DNA of 46,152 bases, counting the filler, from Jimgerdemannia flammicorona (Eukaryota): the NCBI GenBank assembly GCA_003990765.1. It is 2 parts of 2 records of this genome, joined end to end, with 100 filler letters (N's around TTAATTAATTAA, not from the genome) between each part and the next. Parts side by side here need not be neighbours in the genome. Positions count along the whole stretch, not along the records: positions 1 to 23,029 come from RBNJ01001168.1; 1 more part is not named here. One strand, written 5' to 3'. Under the pieces are notes generated by a model, which saw only the letters and a list, made by a program, of their open reading frames with translations, did no database searches and was not told the DNA's origin. The first letter of the stretch is position 1, and every line of letters begins with the position of its first letter. The position numbers and the translations under genes were made by a program. Positions 3,300-46,152 of this stretch are shown here, in pieces.

Positions 3300-4076
3300 T
3301 GTAATAACTCTCACTTCTACCCCTCTCTTATCCTTTGGATAATTAGGGAAGTGGACTATTACTTAGGGACTTAGTATACAATGTATACTAAGAAGCCTTC
3401 AGTTGAGGAAGTGCTCACTTACAAGTAGTTGTAGCAGCAGTGTCTTCTGTTTCAAAGATCTTTCTCTTGTGCCCTATTTCAAGGGTCTTGTTCTTTGCTG
3501 TGCACAGACTGAATTTGTCTTGGAATTCAGGTTCAATGGGTTTATTTAAGTCTTTGGGGATTTATATACCAGTCTCAGTTCTGGTAGAAGTTAGCTAGGC
3601 TTCTGGAGTTTAGTCAGAAACACTAGAGTCACTTAGATGTCATTACTAAGACTCAGGGGAATGTATATGTATGGGGGGAACTTGATTCTTGTATCAAGAA
3701 CTGAACTAAAACTGCTTTATTTTGGATGGAAACTGGGGGGTATTTATACAAGTTGGTCTGCAATTTCTGACTAAGTATGAGTGACTAATTTGGTAACTAT
3801 AATGAGGTTTGTAATTGCGACCTTTATCAGGTGGTTTTTGGCAAAAAACATCTTTGTGATCAGGATCTCAATTACTAGGCAATGATCAGCTACTGTGATA
3901 ACTGTTGCTGTAGCGCTGATTGTTGAAGATAAGCTGGATATCATTTTTCATATCATTTTCACATCGTTCATCTGTTTGTCATTTGTTATTCATATGTCGC
4001 ACTTGATCATATGATGACATCATCACTCACCAGGTCACGTGATCATTCATCACTCATTGTGCCTTGTTCTATTACA
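3300..4076 (-). repeat. 3' LTR of chromovirus A
   Basis: tgtaat...attaca, direct repeat of 11641-12417. PPT aaggagggaagga on - at 4077-4089. TATAAATA on - at 3741-3748. Confidence 0.95.
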
Positions 4077-4087
4077 TCCTTCCCTCC

Positions 4088-5005
4088 TTAGAAATCAATG
4101 TCCTTATTGATTCAGAAATTGAGAACCAGGGGAGAGAAAGGTAGAGAATCAGGGTTGTTGCCATCTTCTTCAGTAGCAAGGGAGATAGTTGCTGATGGCT
4201 CGCTGTCCAGGATGGAGAAGTCAATGAGGTCTACAAATAGTTCTTACATGGGAATGGGTGTTGGTGTAGGGGTTCTCCATCTGATGTGGTTGGGGCCATC
4301 CAAGTAGAGTTCTTGGTCCTCATGCCTGGAAATATCCATTCAGATGGGCAGTCCTTCAAAGAGGTCAGAGAGGCCTTGGAGCCATTGGTCTGAGTTGTCA
4401 TTCAGAAGGGGGCTCCAGTGAGACTCAATGTCAGTAGACTTGAGGGCAATCCAGGAGTTGGCTTCTTGAGCAACCTTGACTTCTAGGGCATCAACCTTGG
4501 AGAAAGAGAGGTTCTGGAAGTCCTTCAGTTGGATGTAGTTGAGATTGGGGATCGCAAAGAGTGCATAGTGCATGATTTGATGGACCTTTTTGGCAAGTCT
4601 TTGCTCATGCCTGTCTAGGTGAGTCCAGTCAGAGACCTGGTCAGTGGGTAGGCCATTTGTATGTTAGAGAAGCTGGTGACCAATTTCATATTCATGCCAA
4701 ATTTCTAGGCAGCTGGTAGCAAGGTAGGCCCTTTTGATAAGTTCACAGCAGTCAAGAACATACTGTCCTAGGTCCAGGCTGGAGAGGTTAAGGGCCTCTG
4801 AGTGGTGGTTCCTTCCTTGGATAGCAATCTGGATATGTCCAAAGAGGCAGTTAACCTGGCTTGGGAGGGGCCAGCTACAGCAGGCAGTTTGGTGGCAGGT
4901 AGCTTGGCTGCAGGTAGCAGGCATTCTTGTTTTATCTTTTCTTTGTGAGGAGAGGGGAATGAGAGTTGTAGGGTATTCTTGCCTTGGGTATTTATACTTA
5001 TTCAC
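4088..5005 (-). pseudogene. Accessory ORF of unknown function between pol and the 3' LTR of A
   Basis: ORFs 4664-5005 and 4340-4573 share one frame that runs, with a few stops explicable by single transitions, to a TAA abutting the PPT. Basic N-terminus, helical core, acidic tail. Confidence 0.7.
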
Positions 5006-5629
5006 CTATCTGGTGTGACCTTCATTTGGTCATGCTTTCTAGCAAAATGTATGACCTGTTGCTGTATGTAGGGCATGTGCTGGTCATATGAGAAAATTCT
5101 GATTTCAAAGATATTGTCACTTGTAGTTGTGGTTACACAGGGTTAACAGGTCTTAGTCCTCTTTTTTTTTGTCTAGTTGGTGTATTTGTGAGGACTGGCC
5201 ATCCTTATCTAGAGCGAGGGCTCCTATTGTTGTGGCTGGGGGTTCAAACCTCTTGGAAATAGACTTTTCTTATAATCTGAGGCAATTCCTAGTAACAATA
5301 TCTATCATGTGGATGGACTTAGACTGGTTTTGACATTGTCAGCTTTCCTAAGTTCCATATGAAGTATCTGTCATCATTTAGCGGAGATGATACAGATGGC
5401 ATAAAATAGAGTTGTTCAAATGTGTTTTGCTGTAATATGCTAGACTGTTCTTTACTTGGGCCTCTTCTTGTTGGTTATCCATAGTGTTCCCTTTTTGTCA
5501 CAATATTTGATATTATATGTTTCCAGATAAAATATGTAGTCTTCTTTTGTTTGCTATGTGTTCTGAATCTCAGAGTTACAAGTTCTTCCTTTGCTGGGGA
5601 GTAAGTGTTTCCATATAGTCCTGGAGGGC

Positions 5630-5775
5630 TTCACATGCATTCTTCAGAGCTTCTTCTTTTTTTCAGGTGGCATCATGGGTGGGGTAACCCTTCCACTTGA
5701 TCAGGAAAAACTACTTGACTGTTTTGGGATATTTGTAGACCTTTTGGTCAAGTACTTCCTCAATTTCGAATTTCT
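5630..5775 (-). pseudogene. Chromodomain at the integrase C-terminus of A
   Basis: Manual translation FEIEEVLDQKVYKYPKTVK*FFLIKWKGYPTHDAT*KKEEALKNA matches the chromodomain consensus. Confidence 0.85.
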
Positions 5776-5799
5776 CATGATTATTGATCCTAATTGAGA

Positions 5800-6910
5800 G
5801 TGGTGGTGGAACTATATGTTCGGGGAATGAGTTCTCATGGTAATCCACCAATTGGCTGATATGGAATACTGGGTGTACTCAGATATTGTGAGGAAGTTGC
5901 AACTTGTAGTTAACTTTGCTGACTTTTTCCACAATCTTGTATGGTCCAATTCTTCTAGCATGGAGTTTCTTGGCTAGTTGTTGTGCCAGGGTATCAGGGT
6001 AGAGGTGGTCTGTTCTAAGCATGACCATATCACCAATGTTATAGGAGACTTCTCTTCACTTCAGATTTGCATACTTGGTCTGATAGTCTTGTACTTTTAT
6101 GAGGGCATCTCTTGTTATTTACATAAGGTCAGAAATGGTCTTGGCCAGATCTTGGACTACTGGGACTGCTGATTTCACAGTAGTACTCGGAGTCCTTGGG
6201 TATTGACCATGGTTCAGGAAAAATAGAGTCTTTTTGGTAGAGGTTTGCTGACTGTTGTTGTAGGCAAACTTGGCATGGGCTAGGTACTTATCCCAATCAT
6301 TTTGTTTGTAACAGCAGAAGATGCTAAGCATCTGTTTGAGAGTCCTGTTGGTTTGCTTGGTTTGACCATCAGTCTGAGGGTAGTAGGCAGTAGAGAACTT
6401 CAGCTTGGTTTCATGGAGGGAGAAGAATGTCTTCCAGAAGTTGCTTGTGAACTTGGCATCTTGGTCAGATACAATGGTGCTAGACATGCCATATAGCTGG
6501 AATACTTGATTGAGAAAAATCTCAGCAATCTCTAGTACTGTAGTGGTGGTCTTGGTGGGTACAAAATGAGCTTGTTTACTTAGGTGGTCCACAAATACCA
6601 CAATGGCATCCCATCCTGCCTTGGTCTTGGGGAGTTGGACAATAAAGTCCATTGCAATCTGATCCCAGTTGTGACTTGGAATAGGCAAGGGTTGCAGGAG
6701 TCCTGCTGGTAGCTTGTTACTACTTTTGAACCTTTGGTATATCTCGTATGAGACCACAAAGTCTTTGATGTCCTTGGTCATCTTTGGCTAGTAGAACTCT
6801 CTTGAGAGGAGGTTGTAGGTCTTTTCAAAACCAAAGTATCCTGCTGCAGAAGTATCATGGAGTTTCTGCATGATCTTGAGTCACAGAGTATCATTATTGG
6901 GTACAACCAC
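5800..6910 (-). pseudogene. Integrase of A
   Basis: GLLQPLPIP, IAMDFIVQLP, IVSDQD, STAYYPQTDGQT motifs and a GPY motif. Confidence 0.92.
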
Positions 6911-7119
6911 TCTGTCATAGTCTCTGTAGATAAGTCTATCATGATAAGTGAATCTCTTGGCCATTTGCCTCATGAGTTCTGGGACCTCAGCCTCTGGGTC
7001 TTGGTAGAATTAAAGGAATTTCGTCAGGGGGCTATCTTGTTGGTAGCCATCCTTGATCATTTGGGTAAGGTCTCTAATTACTTCGACCATAAAGACAAGT
7101 TTATCTTCTATATATCTAG

Positions 7120-8400
7120 AGTAACTATCAGCCACATGGTTGGTTTTGCCTGGAATATACTTGATTTCCATATCAAAGTTAGCAATAATTTCCATTCAGT
7201 GGGCTTGTCTGTGGGTTAGTATGAGCTGTGTATGAATATACCATAGTACATATATAGTGATCAGTATAGGCCACAAATGGCTGTCCTAGAAGGAAGTGGC
7301 ACTATTCCTAAAGTGCAGTAACAATGGCCAGGAGTTCCTTCTCATGAGTGGTATACATACTAGGTCTCAGCTAGCTTGAGCTTTTGGGAAAGGTAGACCA
7401 CTGGGTGGTCTTCTTAGCTGAGCACTGCTCCAATAGCAATATCAGAGGCATCTATAATCAGGGTGAATGACCTGGTAGGGTCAGGTACAATTAGCACTGG
7501 GGCCTCGGTAAGGAGTCTCTTGAGATGGTCCATAGCTAAGGTGCATTCAGGGGTCCATTTAGTTTTGATATTTACTCCTTTGTGGGCCAGACTGGTCAGT
7601 GGGGCTACAATAGCAGAGTATTCTTGGATAAACCTTTGGTAATAACCGGCAATACCCAGAAAGCACTGGAGTAGCTTGAGGGTAGTAGGGATGGGAATAT
7701 CCTTAAGGACTGATATCTTTTGGGGGTCCACATTGATACCTTCAGCAGAGATGATATGTCCTAGATACTCAATCTGGTCTTGATAGAACTTACACTTACT
7801 CATCTTGGCATAGAGCTGGTGTTCTCATAGAAGGATCAGTACTTATCTGAGGTGGGTGTAGTGTAGTTCTACTGTTTCACTGTAGATTAGTATATCATCA
7901 ATATATACAAGGATACAGATGTTGAGGAGTGGTCCAAAGATGTCATTCATCAGATACTGGAAAGTTGCTGGTACATTGGTCAATCTAAAAGGCATGACTT
8001 GGAACTGGTAGTATTCAAACCATGTTTGGAAAACTGTCTTCTCAATGTTCTCCTCATCAATGAGAATCTGGTGGTAGCCATTTCATAAGTCTAGTAGAGA
8101 AAAGGTTTTGGCCTTGAAGATTTGGTATAGCAACTTATCAATCCTAGGCAAGGTATACCAGTTCTTGATGGTGATCTTGTTGAGTGCTCTGTAGTTAATA
8201 CACATTCGCAGAGAGCCATCCTTCTTCTTGACAAATAGAATAGAGGCTCCAAATGGAGAGTGGCTGGGTTCAATGTATTCTTGGGCCAGTAATTTGGTCA
8301 ATTCATCCTTGAGGGTCTTGAGCTCAGATTGGGCCAGTTGGTAGATACTCTTGTATGGGGGTTCAGATCCTGGAATAAGGTCAATTTCATGTTGGATTTG
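7120..8400 (-). pseudogene. Reverse transcriptase and RNase H of A
   Basis: [58 protein letters not shown]. Confidence 0.95.
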
Positions 8401-8639
8401 GTACTTAGGTGGAAGTCCTTGGGGATCTTGGAATACATCTTGGAATTCTTCAAACAGTTCTTGAGCTTCTGTTGGAATTGGGCTACTTATAGCTTCAGTG
8501 ACTTCTTGTACTATACAGATGAAGTAGGTGTTTCCCTTTTTTTGAGAGAGTCTCTTCATTTGAATGGCAGAGATGATTTCAATTCCTTGGTAGTTGGTAC
8601 CTTCCTGGGGTATCAGAGTGATCTTTCTGTCTTCATGGG

Positions 8640-8975
8640 TCAGGTTAACCTCATTGGTTCTCTAGTTGATGTCTGGGTTATACTGGGTCAACCAGGCTTT
8701 TCCTAGGATAATGTTCTGTCCTGGGAGGTCTATAATGCTGAAGTCTAACTTCTCTTGATATTTGCCAATCTTGAGCAAGAGATCTTCACAGATCTTGGTC
8801 AGTGATGCAGTTTTACCATCACTAAAGGTAACACTTCTTTTCTTAGTAGCTGGTCTGCTTCAGGCTCCAATCCTCTTGGTGGTCTTAGTGCTGATATAGT
8901 TTCCCATAGCACTGCTATCAAGCAAGACATTGACATTCTGTCTGTAGACTTGGCCTGTGAACTTGATGCAACTGT
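8640..8975 (-). pseudogene. Aspartic protease of A
   Basis: VNVLLDSSAMGNYIS (decayed D-S-G-A) and a downstream IILGKAWL. Confidence 0.85.
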
Positions 8976-9289
8976 CCTCCTTCTTGATAGTGTTGAGCTC
9001 TTCATCCTCATTGTTGTTGTCCCAATTGCTGTCAGTCTTCTCAAAGTCAGTTTCTCCCCATCTTTCACAAGGAGGGTTGTTTTGTTTGGGTTCCTCAGTC
9101 TGTTGGACTTGGTTTCTTTCAGAGTTGATTTTGAAAACCTTGAAGAGGCATACATGGTATTCACTAACATATTCCATGCAGTATATTTGAATAGAATGAG
9201 GGCATCATCCACATGGTGCATAACCATCTGCAATTCTCTTATACCAGTTTTCATCATCTTTCTTCATGGTAGTGATCTTTTGACTGGGA

Positions 9290-9710
9290 GGTTTGTTGGT
9301 AGATCCAAATCCTTTCTTGTCATGATCTGTCTGGGAGAGCTTGGGGACTTCTTCAATGGTGAGATCTTGATGGATTTCTTTGATGATTGCTTGGGCAATT
9401 CTTTGGCCTGCTTTGACTTCAAATGATGTATCTCCAAAATTTTGCAAGATGATATAGATTTCACCAGTAAATCCTTGATCAACTACTCCTCCTCCTAGCC
9501 CAATGTTGAACTCTTTGGCTAGGCTGCTTTGCTCAGCAAGGCAGATGTATATTCCTTTGGGAGCTTGTATTGCAATCCCTGTTCATACTGTAGTATTGGT
9601 ACTTGGTGGAATTGTGAGGTCTTGGCTGCTGTAGAGGTCATATCCAGCATCAGTTGAGTGGGCCTTAGTGGGGATGGTAGCCTTATATCATATCTTCTAT
9701 ACTTTGATGA
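9290..9710 (-). pseudogene. dUTPase domain of A, between the gag knuckle and the protease
   Basis: AGYDL-like motif, GGVVDQGFTGEI, VKAGQRIAQAII, KKGFGSTN. Confidence 0.88.
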
Positions 9711-9779
9711 CATTCTCAGAGTTCTTCTTTCCTGGACCTTCTCCAATGACAGTAATGTTCTGGTTACTGGGTTCACCTG

Positions 9780-10749
9780 TTCTGTTCTTCTTCTCAGAGC
9801 ATCTGAATGAGATGTGTTCTGCCTTCTTGCAGTTGAAGCACAATTCCTTTTCATGGAGTTGCTTCTTTTCATCCTCAGTGAGAGGTTTGGGTTCTCTGGG
9901 ATTTCACTGGTTCCTTTGATTATTTCTTTGATTATTTCTCCTAGTAGGATTTCTTCTATCTTAGTTATCCTTCTTGTGTTCTTGATTTCATAGAGCTTGT
10001 GCAGCAAGGATTTCGTGGGCTTTTCTTTGTACTTAGGCAAAACACCATGAGTAGTGGGGGCATCCTTGGGGAAGACTCTGTTTCTTGATCTTCTGGGTGA
10101 GCCCGTCTGGTAGGGCTGCAAAAAGATGGTTGGCTCTGGTACCATTGATGGCCAAGTTATTCTCCTTGTAGGTAAGTCCAACAGTTTTGAGATAGGCATC
10201 TATTCTGGTGGTAAAGGTCTCTAGATCTTCTTCACCATTCTTGTGGAACTTCATCTGGAACAGTTTGTTCCAAGTTTCTTATATATAGACCACATTTCAG
10301 AATTTGATCAGTAGTAAGGCCTTGAGTCCTGGGCCTGCTTCATAGTCATCCCAACCTGGTCTATTATTGGTAGATACTTGTCCATTGACTTGAGGGCAGT
10401 CTTCCCAGATTACTGGGTGTTGTTCCAAGGTTCACCAGAATTTGGCTACTGTTCTAGTGAAGAATGTGGCTACTGTTTCTACTTGTGCTGCTGATGTAGC
10501 AAACAGCTGTTGAAGGGTGTTGTTCTGGTTATTTGTGAGCATTCCTGTAGGTACTCAGTTATTATTTCATTGGTTTGCTCAGTAGTCTGTATCAACTGCA
10601 TTGATGAAGTTTTCAATATCACTGTTTTTTCCACTAAATGTTAGAATTTGCAAGGTCTTAGTTAGTTTGTTCTGTTCAGCAATCTGTCCTACTATCCCTG
10701 CTAGTGCTGCTAGCTGAGAAGTCAGTGCTGCAATATTGATATCTACCAT
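9780..10749 (-). pseudogene. gag: gag of A with CCHC zinc knuckle
   Basis: TFSGKNSDIENFI, EDLETFTTRIDAYL, and CFNCKKAEHISFRC at ~9799-9840. Confidence 0.8.
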
Positions 10750-11621
10750 TGTGTTGACTATTGGTAGTGGGTCTGTTGGGGTAGATTCTCCTGAAGATTT
10801 TTCTACTTGGTGAGGTTGTGGTGCTGTATAACTTGGGGTTACTTGATTTCTGGATATCAGATCAAAAAGTCCTGTGAGAGAGGGTAAACCAAATCTCTGT
10901 ATAGATAGCTGGGTTGGTTCTGGGGTCTGATCTTCTTGACCTGTGGTTCCTTGATAAATTCCTAGGCCTGCTGTTCCTCATTGGCTATCGTCAGACTGGT
11001 AACCTGTAGAGTCTTCATCTGACTCCCTTCCCTGATGAGATAGTGTGTCCTCATACTGACTAGGTCCTTCAAAGAGAATATCAGTCTCTGGCTAGGTAGA
11101 TGGGCCTACTTCTTGTTCAGCAGTAGGGGATGGTTGGCCTGCTTGCTTGTTCTTGTACCTGGTTATAGCAGAGGCATAGTATACAACTAGCCTGTAGTAG
11201 AGGGAGGTCTTGATAGGGGTATGATGATATCTGTCAGAGGCAATCCACTTGGCAGCTACTTCTCTTGCAGCAGGGGATGTCATATAATTTAAAAAATCCT
11301 GAGTGGCTACAGCAGTAGATTCAGGGGTCCTAGTGGTTCCAATATGTCCTCAGAGGAGTTCGTAGAACCTATGGTGGCTGACAATATTCCTAAGTCCTGG
11401 GTGGTAAGTTCTAAAGGTCCGGTATAGATCTTTGTAAGCCTGGTTAATTATAAGCTAGTGAGTCCTTGGGTCTGCGGTTTCTTGATACCATCTGGTCCTA
11501 ATAGCAAGGGCTTCTCTGGCTCTGGTTTAAGGATCCACAGTTGATTCTGGGAGTTTACTTCTGTCCAAGGTTGGTCTTATTTCAACTTCAGGAGTGTGTT
11601 CTTTAGTATCTTCTTGGCTGG

Positions 11622-11637
11622 TAATCTACTACTACCA
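11622..11637 (-). promoter_or_regulatory. Primer binding site of A (tRNA-iMet-like)
   Basis: tggtagtagtag on -, 3 nt inside the 5' LTR. Same type as tggtagcagtag of element C. Confidence 0.6.
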
Positions 11638-11640
11638 AGT

Positions 11641-12417
11641 TGTAATAACTCTCACTTCTACCCCTCTCTTATCCTTTAGATAATTAGGAAAGTGGACTAT
11701 TACTTAGGGACTTAGTACACAATGTGTACCAAGAAGCCTTCAGTTGAGGAAGTGCTCACTTATAAGTAGTTGTAGCAGCAGTGCCTTCTGTTTTAAAGAT
11801 CTTTCTCTTGTGCCCTATTTCGAGGGTCTTGTTCTTTGCTGTGCACAGACTGAATTTACCTTGGAATTTAGGTTCAATGGGTTTACTTAAGTCTTTGGGG
11901 ATTTATATACTGGTCTCAGTTCTGGCAGAAGTTAGCTAGGCTTCTGGAGTTTAGTCAGAAATACTAGAGTTACTTAGATGTCATTACTAAGACTCAGGGG
12001 AATGTATGTGTGTGGGGGGAACTTGATTCTTATATCAAGGACTGAACTAAAACTGCTTTATTTTAGATAGAAACTGGGGGGTATTTATACAAGTTGGTCC
12101 ATGATTTCTGACTAAGTATGAGTGACTAATTTGGTAACTATAATGAGGTTTGTGATCACGACCTTTGTCAGGTAGTTTTTGGCAAAAAACATCTTTGTGA
12201 TCAGGACCTCAATTACTAGGCAATGATCAGCTACTGTGGCAACTATTGCTGTAGCACCAATTGTTGGGGATAAGCTGGATATCATTTTTTATATCATTTT
12301 CACATTGTTTGTCTATTTGTCATTCATTATTCATATGTCATGCTCAATCATATAATGACATCATCACTCACCGGGTCACATGATTGTTTGTTGCTCATTG
12401 TACCTTGTTCTATTACA
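11641..12417 (-). repeat. 5' LTR of chromovirus A
   Basis: Direct repeat of 3300-4076. Differences checked by eye are almost all C/T or G/A. Confidence 0.95.
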
Positions 12418-13259
12418 AAGATCATATAATGGAAAGAGTCACTGGAGTTAGAATTGAAGTACCCAAGGCAACTAGTATAATCTCTACTATAATGATCAAT
12501 CAAAACACACCTCAGCTAAGAGCTATAGAGTAGCAGAGAAACAGTGACCCTATGGAGGAGCTTGCCAAGCAGTTCACCAAAATGACTGCCCATCTAGGAG
12601 ATATAGTGAAGGAAATCAGAGAAAGAGACTACCACCCAGTTTAGAAGTTTGCTGCTACTATAGACAAGAAGAAAGGTACCTACTATATCTGTAGAGAAGA
12701 AGGCCACTACTTCTATGAGTATATAAGTGAAACCAAGTACAAAGCTCAATCAAGCAATACCACATAAAACAAGAAGCAGGCCAATACAATTACCTTCAAA
12801 GAAATTGAAGAGTCTGATGAAGAGGAATAGAAGGCATATCCTGCCCAGACCACTAAGAAAGATGTCTACAAAGAACTCTATGAGAGACTGCCAGGAAGAC
12901 CTAAGAAGAATCTAGTGGAAAAACAGATGGAAACTACTATAGAGAGCTAAGCTAAAGAAATAGACCAAGATATGGAACTAGAACAAGCAGTTCAAGATAT
13001 CATCTGAGGAACCACTCCAGCCAGTGAGAGAGAAAAAGAAAAGAAGCTTTGCAAGACCAAGACCTTCAAGTATGATATTTTCAAAGACCTCAGCCAACAA
13101 AAAGTCAATGCAACCTTTGGTCAGCTTGTAGAAATCTCAACATTCAGATAGCAAATGAGGTTTAAACTTGCTAAAACAACTAAGGAATGAGGATGGAAGA
13201 TAACTGAGGCCAATAATGTTCAAGAAGACTCAGTAGAAGAAAGCAAAGATAACTACAAG

Positions 13260-13640
13260 ACCTCTGCCTATGTAATCTGCCAAATTGAAGATAGAGTCTT
13301 TAAGGTCATTATCAATACTAGAGCAAGAGGATATCTCCTTAGCAAGAAAGCAGCAGACTGCTTAGGTTGGGAAGTTGAAGAAGTAACTAAGTTGGTGTTT
13401 ATTACAGCTGATGGCACAAGAGCCATATCTCTGGGAAAGATTTGAAATATTCTCATCAAGTTTGGAGGAGTAACTATCCCAGTAGATATAATTGTAACCA
13501 ATACAACCAACTATAACATCCTTATCAACAATCAATAGCTTCACAAAGCCAGAGCAATAATCAATCTCAATATACAGAAGATGCAGATTATCTACTGAGG
13601 ACAGAAGATACAAATTCCCATCAATGTCAACAAAGGAGTC
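13260..13640 (+). pseudogene. Aspartic protease of B
   Basis: VFKVIINTRARGYLLSK (decayed IIDTGA), FITADG, YNILINNQ*L. Confidence 0.75.
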
Positions 13641-13964
13641 CTGTCTGATATAGAGGAATAAGAGAGTGAACAAGAGAAAGCTTATATAGTGATCACTCAG
13701 AAAAAGAAGAAGAAAGTTGGATGGATGAGTGAAAAAGAATTGTGCAAGAAGATTGCAGAAAGATATGTACTATAAGAAGTCTGCCCCTATAGAATCAAGA
13801 TATACTATATGGAGCATATCAATGATTACTACCAGTATACTGGCAAAATCAAAGAGATTTACCATCAAAGAAGACAGAAGGCCCTCAAGAAACAGGCTAA
13901 AGAGGAAAAAAAGAAGAAGGAAGATGATGAACCACCAGTCCTCCTGAAGGATGATAAAGAAGAA

Positions 13965-14385
13965 ATCAAGGTCAAAATTCAGAAGATCTATCTGAATGTA
14001 GTTCTACCAGAATATAAGTCAGAAAATGCAGCTGGAATAGACATTACTACAGTAAAAGAAACTATACTGGAGCCCCAGATAACTACCTTGCTCACAACTG
14101 GTTTGGAAATAATCATACCAAAAAACTATATTGAAATCCTCAAGATAAGAAGCAGTCTGGCTAAAAGTAAAATTACCATTGAAGGAGGAGTCATAAACTC
14201 AGACTATACTGGAGAAATCCTACTTATTATCCAAAATCACAATCCTACAATCCTATTTCCCAATCAAGAAGAAGGACTGATTGGCACAGATGTTGATCTT
14301 TCCGATTTTATAACTAAAGATCATAGAAGTTAAAAAGCTAGAGGAAATGAAAAGAGGAAGGAAAGGATTTGGATCCACTGGAAGA
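13965..14385 (+). pseudogene. dUTPase domain of B, between protease and RT
   Basis: AAGIDI, RSSLA, GGVINSDYTGEI, RGRKGFGSTG. Confidence 0.92.
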
Positions 14386-14569
14386 GGAGTATTTGCCAGC
14401 ACCAAGATCACTAAACTAAAGCATAGAAAGGAGAAAACTACAAACAAGTATAGCTACACCATCAGGAATGAGTTTCCACTCAAAAAGGAACTCAAGAAGA
14501 TACTCTATAAATTTGAGGATGTTCTTGCCACAGATTTCAAAGATATCAAAGGAAAAACCCCATACTACC

Positions 14570-15870
14570 ATTATGAGATAAATACTGGAGACACTGAACC
14601 AATTTACCAGAAGGCAAGATCTGTCCTACCAGTCTATCAGGAATGGCTCAGAGAAGAAATTAAGCAGATGAAAGAAGCCAGTATTATCAAAGAAGCCAGT
14701 AGCCCCTGGTCTTCACCAGTAATGCTAGTACTGAAAAAAGGAAGCAAGCCTGGAGAATTCACCCCAAGACTCTGCATTGACTATAGAAAGCTCAATATAG
14801 TTACTAAGAAGGATCACCAATCACTGCCCCTCATCAATGACATCCTTATAACTCTGGGAGATGAAGCACAGTACTACAGCACCTTTGATCTATACTCAGG
14901 ATTTCACCAAATCAGACTCACAGAAGCAGCAAGTGAAAAGTCAGCCTTCATAACCTCAGATAGAACATATGTCTACCTGTGAATACTATTCTGAATGTAT
15001 AATGTACCAGTAAGTTTCTAGTGAATGATGAACAAAATCTTCCACTATGATATAAGAAGATAGATAATGATTTATGTTGATGATATAATTATCTACAACT
15101 ATACACCAGAAGAACATCTGCAGCATATCTAGTAGATAATGGAAAGACTGAGAAAGTATGGTCTATACATCAAGCTCAAGAAGTACAAGTTTGCAGAAAT
15201 TGAGATCTCCTATCTTGGCCATATTATCAACTGAGATAGAATACACACTGATCCCCTCAAGATATAAGCAGTAGCAATATACCCAAGACCCACTATAGTT
15301 ACTGAAGCTCAAGCCTTCATAGGACTCACCTCATATTACTGAAGATTTATTAGAGGATTCTCTAATATTGCAGGTCCAATCTATGAACTCACAAGAAGAA
15401 TACCAAGTTTCAATAGAACTAGTAGACAGCAATAAGTATTTGATGAGCTCAAGGTCAGACTGACCCAAGTACTCATCCTTAGAAGACCAGACTGAACCCA
15501 AGAATTCATCTTTCAGATAGATGCAAGTACATAAGGACTAGGAGCAGTCCTAGCTCAAAAGAAAGACAAAGTAGAATATATCATTGCATACCTCAGCCAT
15601 GGAACCTAAGGAGCTGAAAAAGAATACAAATCATATAAGTTAGAGTATCTTACAGTCATCTGGGCTGTAGAAAAGTTCTACTACTATCTGGCCAGAAGAT
15701 ACTTTATTATTCAAATAGATCACTCAGCTCTTATCTAACTACTGACTACTAGATAACCCAAGAGAATCTATACCAGATGGATCATGAAGTTGCAAGCCTA
15801 TGATGTAACCATCATGCACTACCCAGGAAGAACTAATATCAATATAGATACTCTCTTATGGACATCCTGA
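14570..15870 (+). pseudogene. Reverse transcriptase and RNase H of B
   Basis: SSPWSSPVMLV, RLCIDYRKLN, FDLYSGFHQI, YVDD, YLGH, DAST*GLGAVLAQ. Confidence 0.95.
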
Positions 15871-15949
15871 AGGACCCCCAACCAATAAATCAATAATGAA
15901 TAAGGAGCTCTACTATAGAATAATTATATATCTGGGACAGCAAAAGATG

Positions 15950-17064
15950 CCCCAATATCTGGAAGAATGGACATAAATAATTATCAACAGAATATGGAAA
16001 CAATTCGAAACTGATAGAGAAATACTAAAGAAAGGAAAACTACTAGTTATACCAGAATACAAGAAGGAATAAGCAATGAAATCAGTATATAAACTCAGCC
16101 ATCTAGGAGGAACCAATATATACAATAAAGCAAGAAGAATAATATGGTGGCCAGGAATGGAGAAAGATATCAGACAAGTCAGAAATAGAAACAAGACTAA
16201 CAAAATCAAGCCCCAGGATCAGCATACATAGAACTAGTGCTATTTGCCTATATTGTAATGGATGTAATTGGCTCTCTACCCTTGACTCTGACTAGTAACC
16301 AATATATCATTATTATTATAGACCTCTTCACAAAATGGATAGAGGCAGGACCTCTCAAAAAAGTCAATGCATAGTCAATTACTGATTTCTTTTACAAAAA
16401 AATCATCTGCCAATTTAAGACTCCAATGCAAGTAACCACAGACAGAGGGACAGAATTTGTGAACCAGTTTTTTGAGGTTCTCTATAAGAAGTATAAGATC
16501 TAGTATATTCAGACCACAGCCTATCACTCTCAAGGAAATGGATAAGCAGAAAGGACCAATAAGACTCTTAAGAATGTTATTGCAAAGATCTGCAATAACT
16601 ACAAAAACTGAGATCACTATCTGTCAATAGCATTATCTGCTCTCTGGAATATCCAATCACAAAGCACCCACTTTACTCCTCAAGAAATACTATTTAGAGA
16701 AGAAGGTTCTTAAGAAACTTTATTGTCTAATAGAGATACTATATGGAAATATATAGATATGGAGATATAGAAACTACACCAAATCAGAAAGAAGGCTGAG
16801 GATTACATAAATAAGATACAGACATTACAGCAGAATAATGCAGAAAAGATTCACAAGCCCCTGGAGATTATCAAGATAGGAGACAAAGTCCTGGTATATC
16901 AGAATATAGTAGAAACTTCATAGTTACAAAAACTGGAGCCTAAGTGGGATGGACCTTACCTTGTACAAGATATAAAAGGGACCACCTTTTGGCTACAAAA
17001 ACTCTCAGGCACAATCATCTCTACTACCATTCACTGAAACTAACTTAAGAAGTATCATGACTAG
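15950..17064 (+). pseudogene. Integrase of B, no chromodomain
   Basis: MDVIGSLP, DLFTKWIEA, TDRGTEF, TAYHSQGNG*AER, WDGPY. Ends LKKYHD*. Confidence 0.9.
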
Positions 17065-17474
17065 TCAATGAAGTAATACCACTACCCTCAAGATTACTAG
17101 TACCACCCAGTGAGCCATAGAAAGACAGTGGTGTTCCACCAAGCCACTAATGATAGAGGAATCCTTTGACAGTATCCAGAGTATAGTGCAAACACACTTA
17201 TTACAAATCTCACATTTTAAGACCTACTAGAACTGAACTGAGTTCCAGGAATACTTCAAGTTGGGACAGCTACTGAATTCAAAACTGAAGATGGGAAAAG
17301 AAGACTAGATTAAGGAATGTTAGCTCTCCTATACTCAAATTACAATTACAAAAAGAGTACACAAGTTATTTAAGGATGACAAGTCAGCCTTAGTCACCTT
17401 TCTCTGATATAATTCACATTACACCAACTTCAAGCGATAGTTTTTCAATACAACTCAGAGGAGTGACTATCAAC

Positions 17475-19390
17475 ATGGATGGCAATGATCAAACTGGTGA
17501 GCATACTAGCCAGGGGGGTGATAGTGCCTTTGGCTGACAGCAGGTGGAGAGGAGGGGAGATGGTTTGGAAATACTGGGGGCCTCAATGGCTAGCCAAGGC
17601 TCTGGTGGTGGAGGGAGGGGCAGGCTGAGGCAGAGAGGAGGGGAGAGGTCGACCTTCGCTGACAAGGTCAGAATGGGAAAGATGACTGCAGGCCTTGATG
17701 GTTGGCTGGGCCTGGGGACAGCATCGACAGCGGCTGCTGGGGGACAGGGAGGTATACCCAGGAGAGTCTCAGGTAGCAGGGGAGGAGCAGGAGTAGGGGC
17801 TGGAGATGTGACTACTGATGGAGCTGTGACTGGGGATCTGGCAAAAAATCCAGATGTGACGGCAGCTGGCAATTTGGGACTGGGAGTGGGCATGAGGCCC
17901 AGGGACCTGGCTGATGGGTGACGGGTATGGTATTGGCCCCGTTACTCAAGAAGTTGAGGTCAGAATTCGCAGTCATAATGTGCTTCCAGGGCTTGGCGGT
18001 AATGGTGAGGATGATTTTGGGGCTTGTGGCACAGGAGGCTAAGGGGGCAGCATCGGTGAAGTTCTTGAGGGGAAAGGAAGGGGTTGAGGTGGGGTTTGAG
18101 GAGGAAGATGCCTTGTTGGCAGTCATGGAGAAGGGGGTGATGGTTGGCAAAGTTGTGGTCCCTATGGCCTAGTGCATGTGCTGGGACCCCCGAGTGGTGC
18201 AGTTGATGGTGTTGGACCTCCCGACTGTATCAAAGGAAAGGACCAGGGAGTTGGTGGTAGAGGCGGTCAAGGAGTATGGTGAGATTGTGGATGTTGGGTT
18301 CAAGGTCTGGGAGGGCATGGAGCTTAGAACTGGCGATGTCGATGTCAGGGTGAGGCTGGCTGGGAAGGAGAATATGGAGAAGTCAAGGGACTGGCCAGTA
18401 GTGCTGTGGTGGGGACCAGTGGAGTGTAAGGTCACTAGGGTGAAGGGGACTCAGGAGGAGGAGGAGGACCTGTTGGAGGCTCTGGAGGATCTGGAAGAGG
18501 CAGTGGCAAGGAGGAGATTGGCCTGGAAGGAGTTTGAGGCCAGAATGGTGGTGGGGGAGGTGGATGGGAAGAGGGTCTGGATGGAGAAGGGGGCCTGGGA
18601 GAAGATGCAGGGGAGGAGGATCCAGAAGGAGCTGTTGGCAAAGTTGGGCAGGGGTGGGGTGGGTGGAAGCTCAGGGGAGAGAGTTGCAGAGTCACAGGAG
18701 AGCACTTGGGCTGTGGGGGGAGAGATGGCCCAGGGTGGGGCTCAGATTGGAGTGGAGGAGAGGAGGGAGGGCAATTTGGAGGCAGATGCCAAAATGGGTG
18801 AGGGTGTGCACTCTCAGTATAGTATTCCGGAGGGGGCAGAGGGGGAGGAGGAGCTGATGGATGTGCCGGATAAGGAGTGGGATGAGTCGGTGAGAAGAAG
18901 CACACTGGTGGACCCTGAGGTGGATGGAGGACAAATCACTCAAGGGGCGGTGGAGGCGGTGGATGAGGAGAAGTGGATGTGGAAGACCTTAGAAGGAGTA
19001 GTGGCTGAAGAGCTGGGGGGTGAGGACTTCAGGGTGTTGGAGGAGAAGTATTGGGAGGAGATCCTATGGGGGGAGGAGGTGCCGAGAAAGATGAGGAATG
19101 AGATTCTAGCAGTCCTCCTGGAGTCAGTTGAATATCAAGTTGATGATCAGTGAGAGGAGAAACTTAGGAGGATTGCAAGTGATAGAGCAATTTTCTTATG
19201 GAATTTGAGGAAGGGACTAGAGAAGTGGCATGCTGTCTGCTTAGATTACCGGGTGGATATGGAGGAGGTGGACAGGGTGGAATGTCAGGAAATCTTGGGG
19301 GCTCTGGATGCTCAGGATAATGCAGAGGGTGACTTGGAAGCTGAGCGGTGCTTGGATCTGGCAGGAGATGAGATGAGTATGGAATTATAG
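17475..19390 (+). pseudogene. LINE D ORF1 (putative RRM-type nucleic-acid-binding protein, acidic/coiled C-terminus)
   Basis: Chained ORFs 17544, 17918, 18176, 19205 with one frameshift. YGEIVDV...LRTGDVDVRVRL resembles the Tx1/L1 ORF1 RRM region. Homologues in three other copies. Confidence 0.75.
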
Positions 19391-19421
19391 GTTGAGGCCT
19401 CTATTACAACATTTCTTCAAT

Positions 19422-22400
19422 ATGAACAGTATAACTAGAATTTTCTCATTGAACGTTAATGGGCTATGGGGGTCAGCTAGGAGGAAGTATTTATTTGGTT
19501 GGCTTAAGGGACTGGATGCAGACCTCTTCTTACTGCAGGATGTTCATTATGAGGCAGATGTGGACTTATAGGATTGGACTAAGGAATGGGGGGGTGCAGC
19601 AGTTTGGAGGGGGAAAGTGGGTATTCTTGTTCAGAAAAGGATGGGGGACATTGGAAACATTGGACATTGGGGGTCTCAGGTAGTGTGGGGAGTGTGGAAG
19701 AGGCCTGGATGGGGCCTGCTGATAGTTGGGTCCTGTTACTGCCCAGCAGAGAGAGGGGAGAGGGTGGAATGGATCCATGGACTGAAAGAGGCTGGTGTGT
19801 TGGGAGAAGTTGGGTTAGACTGTATGGGGGGTGACTTCAATATGGTTCGGGATAAGGAGTTGGACAGAACAGATGGAGGGAGAGGTGTGCGGGGTGAAAG
19901 TGGTGGGTTGGATGACTGGTTGGAGATGGAGAAGTTGTGTTCGCTAGTAAACTCAGGAAGATTTTTTTGGACTGAGTGGCGGATGTATATCCACTAGGCA
20001 GCAGGACTGGGCTCCAGGATTAATTGGATTCTAATGGTAGAGTGTTGGAGAGCAGATGTCTGGTCAGCGCTAGAAGTCATATGGTGTCCGTAGTCTGATC
20101 ACTGGGGGCTGCTTGGAGGGGGGAAGTTTGGGGGAAATGTGGATGGGCCTGGACATTGGTGACTAAATTCTTCCTTGTTGGAGGATAGGGTATTGTGGGA
20201 GGGATGGGAATCAGAGGTGGTTGGAAGTATCAGCAGGTGGCGGGAACATGGACTGGAGATTGGGGACTGCTGGAGAAGGCTGAAGGCGAAGGCTCAGGAG
20301 TATTGGAGGGAAGCAGAGAAAGGAAAGTGTACCCAGTGAAGGCAGCGGGTGCTGTAGGCCTCGCAGTGTCTGGCAGCACTCATAGAGAGATGGGCAGGTG
20401 TGCTGGAGGATGGGGCCATGGCTGATTGGTATATTGCGAGGATCCGGCTGGAGGTGAAGGAGCTCAAAGGGGTGCTATACAGGGAGGAGGAGGAGCAGTT
20501 GCAGGGAATGGTGGCCCACCTGCAGTGGCAGGGGCTTGAGGAGGGGGAGAGGCCTACCAGGTTCTTGTCATGGTTGTTACAAGCACGATATATTAGGCAG
20601 TGGTGGGAGGGAGTTTTGGATGAAAATGGTGAGCTGGTGGTGGAGACTCTGGTGATTCTGGGCCTACTGTGAACCCAGTGGGAGAATCTTTGGAGTGAGG
20701 AGGATGGGGGATTGGATGCCCTAGATATTGAAAGACAGCTGGGGGATTGGCACCCAGATCCTGCAATGGGACTTGGGGCATTGGGGGACCTGGTGAGTGG
20801 CAAGGAGATTTGCAGGGTTGTGGCCTCAACGAGTAAGGGGATGACTCCGGGAGAGGATGGGCTCTCTTGGGATTTTTGGCAGAAGATGGCTGGGGTGGGT
20901 GAGGTACTAGAGGAAATGACTGCTATGTATGATGGAGTTCTTCGGTCTGGTGTCTGGATTGGGGGACAGCATTTAGGGCTAGTTTCCTTACTCTTTAAGA
21001 ACAATGGTAGGCAAGAGGACTGGAGGAACTGGCAGCCAATTATGCTTCTCGATATGGACCACAAATTGGTAATGAAAATCTTGGTGATGAGGTTGCAAGG
21101 AATCGCTCAGCAGGTACTTGGTGTGGAGTAACATGGGTTTGTTGGTGGTCGGTTGATTCGAGATGGGACAGCCTGGGTTCATGGAGTGATTGAAGGTGCC
21201 CGGGCGACAGAGGTGGATGGTAGATTGGTGTTTCTAGACCAAGAGAAGACTTATGATAGAGTGCAGAGAATATGGCTGGAGGGAGTGCTGAAGCAGATTG
21301 GTACCCCCTCGGGGGTCTGAAGATTATTAATCAGCCTCTTGGAGGACAGTCAGACAGCATTGGTCATCAATGGCCACAGGGGGATGACCTTTCCCCTGGG
21401 ACGTGGGGTGCCACAAGGGGACCCCTTGTCACCCATATTGTATGCTCTTTCCCTGGAGCTGCTACTGGACAGGATTCAGTGTAAGATTGGGGGTTTGGAC
21501 ATTTTAGGGGTAAACTGGAAGGTGGGGGCCTTTGCAGATGATATGGTGGTCAGACTGGGCTCCTTGGGAGATGTGGGAGAGTTACAGAGGACTGTGGAAT
21601 GGTATGAGTGGGGTTCTGGTGCTAAACTTAACTGGCACAAATACGAGACACTGGTGCTGGGTGCTGGAATTGTTGGAGGTGATATTATTGGGATGGTGGT
21701 ACCAGTGGGTGAACAAGTGTACTACTTGGGGATCTACTTCTCAGTGTTCAGATCTCTTCTTCTCCAGGCATGGTGGGACCATAAACTTCTGGAGTGGAGT
21801 AATGTTCTGCTGTGATGGGGAGGCCAGCATATGTCCCTTGCTGGAAGGGTGATGGTGTTGAATGTGTATTGGATGCCGAAGCTGTGGTATGTTGGATATC
21901 ACTTGGATTTCCCAACCTGAGTGGTCAAGGAGTTGCTGAAGATGGTGAGGTCATGGATCTGGGGAGGGCGGTGAAGCCAGGTTGGTTGGGAGGTACTTAC
22001 ACTGCCCTTGGAAAGAGGTGGGCTGGGCCTAGTGGACTTTGCTAAGCAGCTTCTATGTCTGAGAGCCTGGTGGCTGCAAAGGGCGAGTGAGCTCAGGGGG
22101 CAGGAGTGGGTGCCGCTCATGCAGAGGTTGTGGGAGGTTCGGTACTCCCCATGTGGTAGCTCTGGGGACCTGCTTGCAATGGTGGCCATAGAAGGGAGCA
22201 GGAGGATGCAATATATGGGCTTTTGGTGGGGGGTGGTGGATGGTGCTAAGAAGATTGGACTTTGGTGGCGAGGTGATGAAGCCGAGAAGGATTGGGGACC
22301 GTGGATGTGGTGGTGGGACAGGCTTCTATTGGGGGGTGTTCTGGTGGAGGATTTTCAGCTTGGCGAGGGCCTGGAGTGTCTGCAAGGACTAGGTAGAGAC

Positions 22401-23028
22401 CTGTGGCCAGAAGCCTGGCAGAGGGTTGGAATTGGGGAGGAGTGGGATTGGAATGGACTCTGGCTTTAGAGCAAATGAGTGTGGCAGTGGCTGCCCCCCA
22501 AGTTCTGGGTAGTATGGTGGCGGGTCTTATGGCGGAATGTGATGTTGAACTATCGGTCTGGACATTTGGTGGACGGTGGGATATTTGAGTGCAAGGATTG
22601 TTTCAATGTTGGTCAAGAGAGAGGAGTGGTACAAACACCTGAACATTGGCTTGGTGAATGCGAGGTTTTGGGGGAGTTTTGGAGATGTATTATAGACAGG
22701 GTAGGGCTGGATGCCATGGAGGGGGAGGGAGGGAGGAGATGGGGAGAGCTCTGCCAGTAACTGGTGGGGGGAGTGGGGGATGAATAGCAGACCCTTAGTT
22801 GGGCTTTAGCTATGTGGGTTGGGTTGGCTGGGCATTGGGTCTATGTATTTGAGGAAGGACACCAGGTCAGGGTTGGTGACAAGGTGACCCAGTGGGAGTG
22901 GTTGCTGTTGGACATTTTGAATGGCTGGTGGAGGGGTTGGGGGATGGGTGGGGGGACCCGCAGGGGTCTGGTGCAGTGTATCACCCAGAAGAGTGGTGGG
23001 AGGGTTCGGGTAGTAGGTAATTGGATAG
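19422..23028 (+). pseudogene. LINE D ORF2 (APE endonuclease, RT, C-terminal zinc finger)
   Basis: SLNVNG, GGDFN, SDH, PGEDG, GVPQGDPLSPILY, AFADD, CKDC...HWLGEC. Confidence 0.93.
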
Positions 23029-23029
23029 T

Positions 23030-23129
23030 NNNNNNNNNNNNNNNNNNNNNNNNNNNNNNNNNNNNNNNNNNNNTTAATTAATTAANNNNNNNNNNNNNNN
23101 NNNNNNNNNNNNNNNNNNNNNNNNNNNNN
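23030..23129. other. Assembly gap / artificial contig linker
   Basis: 44 N + TTAATTAATTAA (stops in all six frames) + 44 N = 100 bp. Confidence 0.95.
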
Positions 23130-28571: not shown

Positions 28572-30616
28572 TGTAAGCGCACAACCTTCAAGCCACTGAA
28601 ATCACACATCACTCTCTGAACAAATCTGGAAATCACCTGCCTGATCACGAAGCTGAGTCAAACCAAAGTCACAGTGCACAAAGCTAAGTCAATACAAAGT
28701 TACAGAACACAAGATTTACACAAACGGAATCTTACCAATCAGGATCAAATACATATATACCAAGCACCGAGACATGTTGAAACAGAGAACCAAAACAAAC
28801 AATAACTACAAACTTGCAAACATACAAACATGACCACCGAGATCTATAACCACATCTGCGCCGACATTTGGAATGCCATTGTCAACCGAGCAATACCCTC
28901 TCTGCTCCTCATGAATATCCATAGCCTAGCACCCCTCTACTTAGTGGAAGCCCAATGGAACGCCCTGAACATGCTTAACGAGGCCCACCGAATCGAACAA
29001 ATCTTAAGCTACTATCAGATCGGCCGCCTCTTGGAAGACATGGTCAAACACCACCATGACACAGACATTACCCAGATGTCCTAACACCAGAAGCTCATCG
29101 CCTGCAAACACCAAGAACTCTTCTATGAGTATAGCACCATTATTCCCCACCTCCGAGTTACTACCAGTGAAATGGTTGCTACCCTGTCCTATGGCCAAAT
29201 CGACGACATGATACAAGAACTCAACCACAAGTACCTCAAGTACGTTGAAACCACAGACAGAACCTTCCCACACCCCGACGACCATATCCTGCAAATGCCT
29301 CAAGTTGGATATGCTATGAAGGACATCTACAATATAATCCACTTCGATGAAGATGAAGCAGAAGACAATGATCCCTCCAACGCTGACATGACCTCTAGCC
29401 AAGGATCCCTGCCAACCCTGATCACACCGCCAACCTTGCCGATGAACTTACAACAGTTCATAACTGCATATGAGACTTATTGGGACAATGACCACTGGTA
29501 TGAATACCAATCTGCATTCACCCCCGATTACTTCAACTACAATGAAGAGACCAGAGAACACAACCTGTACCTTCAGACAACTCTCGAAATCGAATCAACA
29601 ACTCCACCACCTGAGTACAAGCGATATGAACCACAACCACCAACTTACTACAACCCTGCGACTCATAGTTCTATAACCTATAGAAGGTATGCAGACAGCG
29701 AATCCGATGAAAGTGAAGACAATATACCCATCCTTCACCCACCAATACCTTATCCAGCATATGAAACAGATGATGCTATCCTGTAGAATGGAGATGAAGT
29801 CCCAATGTATTACTACCTCAGCCAACAAGGAGAAGTAATCCGCGAACCATTATTCCTAGACGACTACTTCATCAGAGATGATGCAATTGATGGTGATATC
29901 ATCGAAGACTACCCAGATAGTGCCTAAACCATAAATAGCCTAGCAGTCATAGTATAGTTAGATTAGCCTTGTACGATGTGACTCTGAACTGACTCAGCAG
30001 TCAGACAATATCTTGATATACATATCAGATCACACTTGTACTACATGACTGCATTCTGACTCAGCAAGGCACTTAGTGCTACATCCATATCTAGCATAGT
30101 TCAGATAGCCCCTCACTAGTATAAATACCCCCTCCCCCAGACCTCAGAATCTCAGACTTGAAGACTTGAACAATCCAAACACAACTCCTGAGCACTTTCC
30201 CACAATATTCCTTTACACAACTACTCCTAGTATAGCAATATCATGAATAGCAAATAAACCTATTTAATAACCCACAAACCACTCTTAAGTAAATCTGCTC
30301 CCCGTTAGGTCCCACTCCTAACCCCATCATGAAATTTCCTAATTGGGTATTGTCTGCAGCGATACGCCAATTCAACTAAGCTGGTCTTAGTTTCTTGAAC
30401 TTCCTGAAATACAGAAAATCCTGAACATCTAGAACTAGTCCGAAAAAGGACTTTGGTTGAGACATCAACCTGATCTTGAAATCAATAAGCGTAGAGGACA
30501 TACTCCATATGAAATTGATCTTGACCTTAAGAAAACGGTCTTCCAGAATATCCAGAACTTCCAGAAAACCCTTCCAGAACTACGTAACGGTTACCCCTAA
30601 AAGCAACCCTCTTATA
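28572..30616 (+). mobile_element. 2045-bp solo-LTR-like insertion carrying an ORF, inside the RT of C
   Basis: Termini tgtaag...cttata (cttaca decayed), exact 5-bp TSD tttat. Removal restores ATF*TFMNKIF of RT. TATAAATA at ~30120. Second copy begins at 45858. Confidence 0.9.
28830..29927 (+). pseudogene. 365-codon ORF within the solo LTR, unknown function
   Basis: ORFs 28830-29084 and 29172-29786 are one frame running to TAA at 29927 with two internal stops (TAA, TAG) explicable by C-to-T. ATG context conserved at 46147. Confidence 0.8.
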
Positions 30617-45857: not shown

Positions 45858-46152
45858 TGTAAGCGCACAACCTCCAAGCCACCGAAATCACATGTCACCC
45901 TCTGGACAAGCCACTGAAATTACATGCGACCTCCGAACAAATCTGGAAATCACCTGCCTGATCACGAAGCTGAGTCAAACCGAAGTCACAGCGCACAAAG
46001 CTGAGTCAATACGAAGTCACGGAATACAAGATTCACACAAACGGAATCTTACCAATCAGGACCAAATGCATATATACCGAGCACCGAGATACGTCGAAAC
46101 AGAGAACCAAAACAAACAACAACCACAACTTCCAATATACACAAACATGACC
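45858..46152 (+). mobile_element. Start of a second, less mutated copy of the ORF-bearing LTR
   Basis: tgtaagcgcacaacc start. Aligns with 28572-28835, retains more CpG, and has one extra ~31-bp subrepeat. Confidence 0.92.

Follow-up and report, generated by a model that had tools for sequence, protein, structure and literature searches.

Two lineages of long terminal repeat (LTR) retrotransposon, here called A and B, were compared in a stretch of 46,152 nucleotides, filler included, from Jimgerdemannia flammicorona (GenBank assembly GCA_003990765.1); "the window" refers to this stretch at its full length. Element A is a decayed chromovirus that carries a third open reading frame, ORF3, at its 3' end, next to the polypurine tract (PPT) and the 3' LTR. 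Lineage B is represented by a unit of about 2 kb, read as a solo LTR, within which another open reading frame (ORF) is embedded. The best explanation, and one that we consider reasonably probable, is that ORF3 represents a real 3' accessory gene that has an N-terminal homologue in the U3 region of the B LTR, the two genes lying on either side of the PPT/LTR boundary.

ORF3 of element A and its relatives

A sequence-only reading of this DNA had placed ORF3 at 4088..5005 of the window, and this location holds: on the minus strand the frame extends from 5005 to a TAA at 4090-4088 and is interrupted by the in-frame stops TAA, TGA, TAA and TGA. The gene most likely starts with the ATG at 4924-4922, given that the relatives P0004 and P0005 begin at that methionine. 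Two of the internal stops correspond to Q and R in intact relatives, as would be expected if CAA and CGA codons had undergone C-to-T changes. The relative P0011 has the same ...DIDF C-terminus as ORF3, and the terminal stop is therefore taken to be authentic. That this stop abuts the PPT, as had been stated, is exact: the TAA overlaps AAGGAGGGAAGGA (4089-4077), which in turn adjoins the TG of the LTR at 4076.

Relatives of ORF3 are few. A profile search of 1.84 billion representative proteins (E<=1e-3) gave seven matches, six of which are relatives and one a spurious repeat protein, and cluster members added four more (P0011-P0014). Word-index protein searches returned just 1, 2 and 1 matches, two of them ORF3 relatives, and A-family queries against viral and genome contig collections returned no relative. 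All of the relatives come from short contigs in ENA or JGI, and none has a label more specific than 'hypothetical protein'. Even at 27-29% identity they remain open over 246-342 codons, which argues for maintenance of the family by selection. A hidden Markov model (HMM) of the A family, in which ORF3 itself is included, matches 4109-4924 at 389.5 bits.

The members of the A family are built on a common plan that consists of a short Cys/Pro-containing N-terminus, a helical region, a DQWLQGL...FEGPPI block that is present in all 8 rows of the alignment, and an acidic tail, rich in proline, in which D-L-I-x-F and ...LNF motifs occur. The ORF3 protein would accordingly be read as an N-terminal helical domain of ~125-150 aa, then the DQWLQGL...FEGPPI block, then a proline-rich, strongly acidic tail; the helical domain is neutral to basic (pI 5.7-9.9). 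Pfam, searched at E up to 10, gave no family for seven of the eight A and B proteins and a single meaningless weak match for the eighth, and comparison of these proteins with PDB sequence profiles gave noise at best (E 0.25-0.5). With no Pfam or PDB sequence match for either ORF, the description of the family as unnamed is upheld. In the ESM Atlas recognition is low, and the two proteins fall close to one and the same set of four generic clusters (scores of 0.84-0.88 and 0.90-0.93), which is a lead only. The proteins were also correctly said not to be env-like: the maximum Kyte-Doolittle mean over 19 residues ranges from 0.50 to 1.51 in the seven proteins computed, none of which has a segment of transmembrane grade, and no Pfam env family was matched. 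Judged by its relatives, ORF3 is a decayed copy of a real, conserved and unnamed accessory gene of a dUTPase-carrying chromovirus.

The B LTR and its embedded ORF

The second lineage came to light through the partner peptide quoted for the alignment with ORF3, which is found from 28911 onward on the plus strand within an ORF of 365 codons (Table 1). P0016 is 86% identical to this ORF, shares its starting methionine and has Q at codon 85, where the window copy has a stop; P0003 (65% identical) has W at the second stop, codon 319, and the same end. Downstream of the ORF are a TATAAATACCC box at 30120-30130 on the plus strand and an AATAAA at 30253-30258, and the order ORF, TATA, AATAAA is that expected of U3 followed by R. 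The unit that encloses the ORF splits the reverse transcriptase (RT) motif of an AT-rich decayed gypsy element between ...ATFQTF and MNKIF.... Its terminal CTTATA is one transition away from the inverted CTTACA, and other copies end in CA. Both B LTR copies in the window begin at the same TGTAAGCGC. The second copy was inserted in a repeat, E3, whose paralogues E1 and E2 align beyond the insertion point. The G-rich stretch that precedes this second copy was considered as a PPT and rejected, as it belongs to the interrupted E-family repeat.

The window alone is insufficient to establish that the unit is an LTR, because the second copy leaves the window at its end and is itself inserted in another element. 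A search of the window for the motif upstream of the B LTR junction gave no matches. The junctions were instead read from contigs of four public sequencing runs placed on 27800-31400. Steps in contig depth coincide exactly with both ends of the unit, and one contig, a paralogue, represents an empty site in which 28533 is joined to 30620 through uninterrupted RT sequence. A purine tract, ...GCTAAGAAGGGGAGAG, immediately precedes the unit in contigs from runs X3 and X2 (in full ...AAGAAGGGGAGAG before 28572, in one contig of each run). Directly downstream, one contig of run X3 has CA+ACTTGGTAG, read as CAACTTGGTAG at 30614, and this is the junction between LTR and primer-binding site (PBS) seen in element A. 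The stretch 28572-30616 has TG...CA-type ends and a 5-bp target-site duplication (TSD), and other copies of the unit have a PPT before them or a PBS after them.

Because of the ends, the TSD, the depth steps, the empty site, the purine tract, the PBS junction and the TATA/AATAAA order, the B ORF is accepted as lying in the U3 of a 2,045-bp LTR. The claim of a second, LTR-embedded ORF is thus borne out through contigs of other genomes. Two points weigh against this assignment, namely that the PPT and PBS junctions rest on one or two short contigs each, from other genomes, and that no full-length B element was found in the window or in scans of metagenome and genome contigs with B-family queries. 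The same points, together with the presence in the window of only one complete and one truncated copy, neither of which flanks gag-pol, could be explained if the unit were some other single-gene element, autonomous or non-autonomous. We regard this as highly improbable in the face of inverted TG...CA-type ends with a 5-bp TSD, a purine tract directly upstream in two runs, the CA+ACTTGGTAG directly downstream that is shared with element A, and TATA and AATAAA signals that follow the ORF in U3-R order.

The 30 nt that precede the B purine tract in the contigs of runs X3 and X2 can be translated as an acidic protein end with a stop that abuts the tract, much like the ...DIDF-stop-PPT arrangement of element A. 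B-type elements may still carry an ORF before the PPT.

Probable homology of the N-terminal domains, and the LTR boundary

The two ORFs had been proposed to form one shared family on the strength of colinear motifs, and all of the motifs quoted were found, colinear in both ORFs and on columns that are conserved in the A family. A blastp comparison of ORF3 with the B side gave E values of 0.019, 0.008 and 6e-4, in the same register throughout. The A-family HMM, built from 8 sequences, matches P0016 at 19.9 bits (i-E 2.2e-8 for the one target) in an alignment of 122 residues with one 3-residue gap, and none of 2000 composition-preserving shuffles reaches this score (maximum 12.8). The window B copy is matched at 8.8 bits, which is likewise reached by 0 of 2000 shuffles (maximum 8.4). 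Alignment of the two profiles with hhalign gave an E value of 9.6e-4 (77 columns, probability 22%), which improved to 1.7e-4 (121 columns, probability 49%) once P0016 was added. In a separate hhalign control the real score was 34.4, as against a mean of 13.0 for 85 column shuffles (sd 2.3, maximum 20.6) and 11.7 for the reversed alignment. When the window was scanned in six frames, the best non-self match of the A HMM was the B ORF (E 0.014; next 2.3) and that of the B HMM was ORF3, at an E value of 1.3 that is not significant.

These profile comparisons make it very probable that the N-terminal domains of ORF3 and the B ORF (~125 aa, ~HMM positions 15-140) are homologous, and on the alignments obtained the homology is limited to this helical domain. 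The shared unnamed family thus stands for the N-terminal ~125 aa and not for the middle block, and the tails are alike in composition only. The C-terminal halves are acidic in both proteins, as had been claimed (pI 4.1-4.2 in 6 of 6 proteins computed), and this is a compositional likeness.

A number of results weigh against homology. The sequence-only reading had named a non-significant pairwise alignment after shuffling as the outcome that would refute it, and for single sequences this is formally what was found: Smith-Waterman scores have z values of 0.4-1.9, and 301, 53 and 133 of 1000 shuffles reach the observed score. That outcome is overturned because the profile tests are significant, and by nothing else. 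The hhalign probability is only 22-50%, and the B-family profile consists of three sequences, of which just two close ones cover the shared domain. No B-family protein was retrieved when the 1.84 billion proteins were searched with the initial A-family profile (A1), made from three sequences. Nothing in the B alignment corresponds to the DQWLQGL...FEGPPI block, short of which the alignments end, and the C-terminal halves of the A and B proteins do not align. AlphaFold2 models of both families are unusable (mean pLDDT, the predicted local distance difference test score, 44.3 and 31.5).

From such results it could be argued that the similarity reflects chance, or the convergence of two unrelated helical, His/Gln-rich accessory ORFs. 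Single-sequence scores that fall inside the shuffle distribution, an identity of merely ~20%, an hhalign probability that does not exceed 50%, the unaligned middle and C-terminal parts, a large profile search without a B member and generic, low-scoring language-model neighbours are all in keeping with this. We consider it improbable, as chance would have to produce an HMM p value of ~2e-8 with none of 2000 composition-preserving shuffles reaching the real score, and an hhalign score ~9 sd above column shuffles. It would also have to produce an alignment that runs colinearly from the N-terminus, broken by only one 3-residue gap, and places its matches on A-family conserved columns, reciprocal best non-self matches in the window scan, and a score that goes up when an independent B relative is added. 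Additionally, the two ORFs hold the same 3'-terminal position on the sense strand of elements that share their PBS, LTR ends and TATA block. The two lineages have in common the TGTAA start of the LTR, the CA+ACTTGGTAG junction, a CTAAG-plus-purine tract and an 18-nt TATA block that is 94% identical (E 0.002) in the A and B LTRs. Comparison of the A and B LTRs and leaders at the DNA level found no similarity beyond this block.

With homology of the N-terminal domains preferred, the same 3' accessory gene is, as read from these sequences, placed before the PPT in lineage A and inside U3 in lineage B. The sequence-only reading had gone further and proposed that a shift of the PPT moved the third ORF into U3. 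Its single family and its LTR embedding stand; the shift as an event, with a new PPT/att pair arising upstream of the gene, and the direction from an A-like to an LTR-embedded state are at most possible, as no DNA similarity beyond the TATA block lets the old and new boundaries be mapped. The ORFs could be homologous without any shift of the PPT or LTR boundary, either because a cassette of promoter and ORF was independently inserted or duplicated, into U3 in one lineage and ahead of the PPT in the other, or because A descends from an ancestral LTR-embedded form. Besides the old boundary that DNA similarity cannot map, it speaks for this possibility that the creation of an LTR boundary would call for a purine tract as well as a TGTAA integrase end, more than a simple point shift supplies, and that the acidic C-terminus and stop readable before the B purine tract may mean that an ORF persists before the PPT. 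Histories of this kind are nevertheless rather doubtful. The A and B genes share their orientation and 3'-terminal place, the spacing from a TATA-like box to the ATG is similar (72 nt in A and ~76 nt in B, where the box is a visual match only), the stop lies ~340 nt (A) or ~190 nt (B) from the LTR TATA, and among the seven matches in 1.84 billion proteins there is no cellular paralogue that could have served as a repeated donor.

Expression, possible function and setting of the gene

The 11-mer TATAAATACCC has four exact copies in the window, one upstream of ORF3 and the others in the promoter regions of the LTRs, both those of element A and that of lineage B. When one mismatch is allowed there are seven matches as compared with 1.29 expected, and 0 of 100 shuffles reach seven. 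This TATA sequence of the LTR thus also stands 72 nt ahead of the ORF3 ATG, which suggests that the gene in element A has an internal promoter of its own. A point against extending this to lineage B is that MAFFT left the regions upstream of the A and B ATGs unaligned, the TATATA-like box ~76 nt upstream in B, inside the 258-nt leader of the LTR, being a visual match only. Both layouts put the accessory gene within the 3' part of the genomic RNA. Transcription from its own TATA would yield a short mRNA that shares its 3' end with the genomic RNA, at the poly(A) signal of the LTR. In the B form every LTR, solo LTRs included, would carry the ORF together with a poly(A) signal, and if the TATATA-like box is functional each B LTR would be a complete gene.

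Two further observations concern these signals. Each A LTR has two TATAAAT(A/C)CCC boxes 182 bp apart (3556-3566 and 3738-3748; likewise 11897-11907 and 12079-12089), each with an AATAAA-like signal within ~30 nt, which looks like a duplicated promoter/poly(A) module. In run X8, which is guessed to be RNA, a contig begins at 30180, ~50 nt past the TATA of the B LTR, with adapter letters before it, and the depth of that run is highest at 30220-30460, although a transcript start cannot be read from contigs.

Foamy viruses encode Tas, which is expressed from an internal promoter and in which an acidic activation part comes after the DNA-binding part. ORF3 is similar in its candidate internal TATA and in its helical-then-acidic layout. 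From this layout, a neutral-to-basic helical domain followed by an acidic tail, it is possible, if only tentatively, that the protein is a trans-acting regulator of the transcription or silencing of its own element, and it might then act in trans as Tas does. About equally possible is that the protein is not a regulator of transcription at all and serves as an adaptor that recruits host factors (such as trafficking, ubiquitin-ligase or chromatin proteins) through short acidic and proline-rich motifs of its tail, or as a suppressor of RNA silencing or repeat-induced mutation. A disordered and acidic tail would suit such a role, as would the PPxY-type motifs of P0005 and of the window B copy, which has two, and the acidic D-L-I-x-F of some members. 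The host mutates its repeats heavily, so counter-defence would pay. However, PPxY is not conserved (there is none in P0003, P0006, P0011 or P0013), and no similarity to a known suppressor or adaptor family was found; we hold this role, too, to be doubtful. Less likely still, and offered as speculation, is the fuller model of a self-contained cassette (promoter and ORF, with the poly(A) signal of the LTR) that encodes a trans-activator or anti-silencing factor of its own element family.

Element A itself is a minus-strand LTR retrotransposon that occupies 3300-12417 and is complete in its anatomy yet decayed (Table 1). It is flanked by ATCTT/GTCTT as TSD, and its PBS, ACTTGGTAGTAGTAG, is one that we take to resemble the site for initiator tRNA-Met. 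The domains follow in gypsy order with the chromodomain at the C-terminus. The zf-CCHC match in gag is weak (Pfam, E 0.068), and pol additionally has an SH3 domain of the Tf2-1 type (PF24626 SH3_Tf2-1, E 2e-19, 69.9 bits). The stop of pol is near 5576, and a spacer of ~650 nt separates pol from ORF3. With paired LTRs, a TSD, the PBS ACTTGGTAG..., a PPT, RT, ribonuclease H (RNase H) and integrase regions and a chromodomain that scores above its Pfam cutoff, the label 'chromovirus A' was correct.

Table 1. Coordinates of the features discussed, counted along the window
Feature	Position	Strand	Details
ORF3, accessory ORF of element A, decayed	4088..4924	-	4 in-frame stops; ATG 4924-4922; final TAA 4090-4088
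Candidate internal promoter, TATAAATACCC	4986..4996	-	72 nt upstream of ORF3 ATG
PPT of element A, AAGGAGGGAAGGA	4077..4089	-	read directly; overlaps final stop of ORF3
Solo LTR of B lineage	28572..30616	+	2,045 bp; TGTAAG...CTTATA; TTTAT duplications 28567-28571, 30617-30621
LTR-embedded B ORF	28830..29927	+	365 codons; in-frame stops at codons 85, 319; TAA 29925-29927
Second B LTR copy, start only	45890..46152	+	89% identical to 28589-28835; leaves window at its end
3' LTR of element A	3300..4076	-	777 bp, TGTAATAG...TTACA, 91.8% identical to 11641-12417
5' LTR of element A	11641..12417	-	777 bp; PBS ACTTGGTAGTAGTAG next, ~11640-11622
dUTPase domain of element A	9208..9582	-	downstream of gag zinc knuckle; PF00692 E 5.1e-18
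RT/RNase H region of element A, decayed	7417..8661	-	PF17919 E 1.9e-13; RT motifs visible in ORF translations
Integrase core of element A	6122..6787	-	PF00665 E 1.4e-6, 28.9 bits, under curated cutoff 32.6
Chromodomain ending element A pol	5609..5770	-	PF00385 E 5.6e-7, 29.8 bits, cutoff 25.1

Between its two LTRs, element A has 64 differences over 777 positions; every one of the 64 is a transition, and 49 lie in CpA context. This pattern is like that of repeat-induced point mutation, which accounts for the stop codons and for the AT-rich wrecks (25-33% GC) elsewhere in the window and means that LTR divergence overstates the age of element A. The window copies of both ORFs are dead, killed as it appears by C-to-T-type transitions, and intact relatives are found in other genomes. 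Two AT-rich gypsy wrecks (~28-37% GC) lie at 12400-17400, with a dUTPase at 13776-14330 and an RT at 14314-14979, and at 25628-33766. The latter hosts the B solo LTR and has LTRs of its own of ~415-450 bp (25628-26042 and 33314-33766, 81% identical). A strongly G-rich repeat family is present in three copies that are 64-69% identical (17465-23000 on the plus, 35723-40628 on the minus and 41807-45889 on the plus strand), with an RVT_1 match at 21321-21812 and ORFs of 308-326 aa that lack a Pfam match. At 23030-23616, gaps of 44 N (23030-23073 and 23086-23129) adjoin a 213-bp tandem duplication (23130-23342/23343-23555, 99%) that is probably an assembly artefact. The left end of the window, of 26% GC, includes a 580-bp palindromic repeat (383-963) with 73% identity to its own reverse complement, and 1-472 matches 34182-34619 at 83%.

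Several known systems resemble one or the other layout. The sag gene of mouse mammary tumour virus, a vertebrate betaretrovirus, lies inside the U3 of the LTR and encodes a superantigen that is a type II membrane glycoprotein; papers on this virus use the term 'LTR ORF'. The B ORF is similarly complete inside U3, so that either LTR of an element would contain it and the genomic RNA would carry it in its 3' part; unlike sag, its product has neither a transmembrane segment nor a Pfam match, and its host is a soil eukaryote, probably a fungus. The foamy-virus genes tas and bet and lentiviral nef are accessory genes that lie between pol/env and the 3' LTR and reach into U3, but the A and B proteins have no sequence similarity to them. 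Extra ORFs are also carried by plant Ty3/gypsy elements. LTR retrotransposons of bdelloid rotifers have captured additional ORFs (PMC5408684). As in these plant and rotifer cases, a third ORF besides gag and pol is common to divergent element lineages here, whereas the hosts and proteins are different and, in the parts of those accounts available to us, an ORF inside the LTR is not stated. Closest in host range is a study by Novikova et al. (2010; PMC2864245), in which dUTPase domains were described in chromovirus elements of Postia, Phanerochaete and Tuber and an 'add. ORF' of unknown function was drawn for some fungal chromoviruses (Figure 3). Those elements are likewise chromodomain-bearing Gypsy elements, some with a dUTPase, that have an extra uncharacterised ORF. 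The portion of the text consulted gives no sequence or position for the 'add. ORF', so that its identity with the ORF3 family cannot be judged, and it does not mention an LTR-embedded ORF. A full-text literature search found no description of a fungal retrotransposon with an ORF inside its LTR, which is no proof, as most subscription journals and Repbase are outside its coverage.

Accessory genes are what distinguish 'complex' from simple retroviruses. To our knowledge, the accessory genes of fungal LTR retrotransposons have barely been described, and an accessory gene inside an LTR is otherwise known to us mainly from complex retroviruses. Annotation pipelines that assume LTRs to be non-coding would misjudge 2-kb LTRs of this kind, and gene callers would report the ORF as an orphan 'hypothetical protein'. 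The two layouts form a natural pair in which to study how LTR boundaries move and what a gene gains by residing in an LTR, possible gains being the extra copies that solo LTRs provide and an existence independent of the body of the element. If the cassette model were true, solo LTRs would keep up a distributed supply of the regulator after the coding bodies have been lost, and the arrangement would be a fungal counterpart, independently reached, of the strategy of complex retroviruses.

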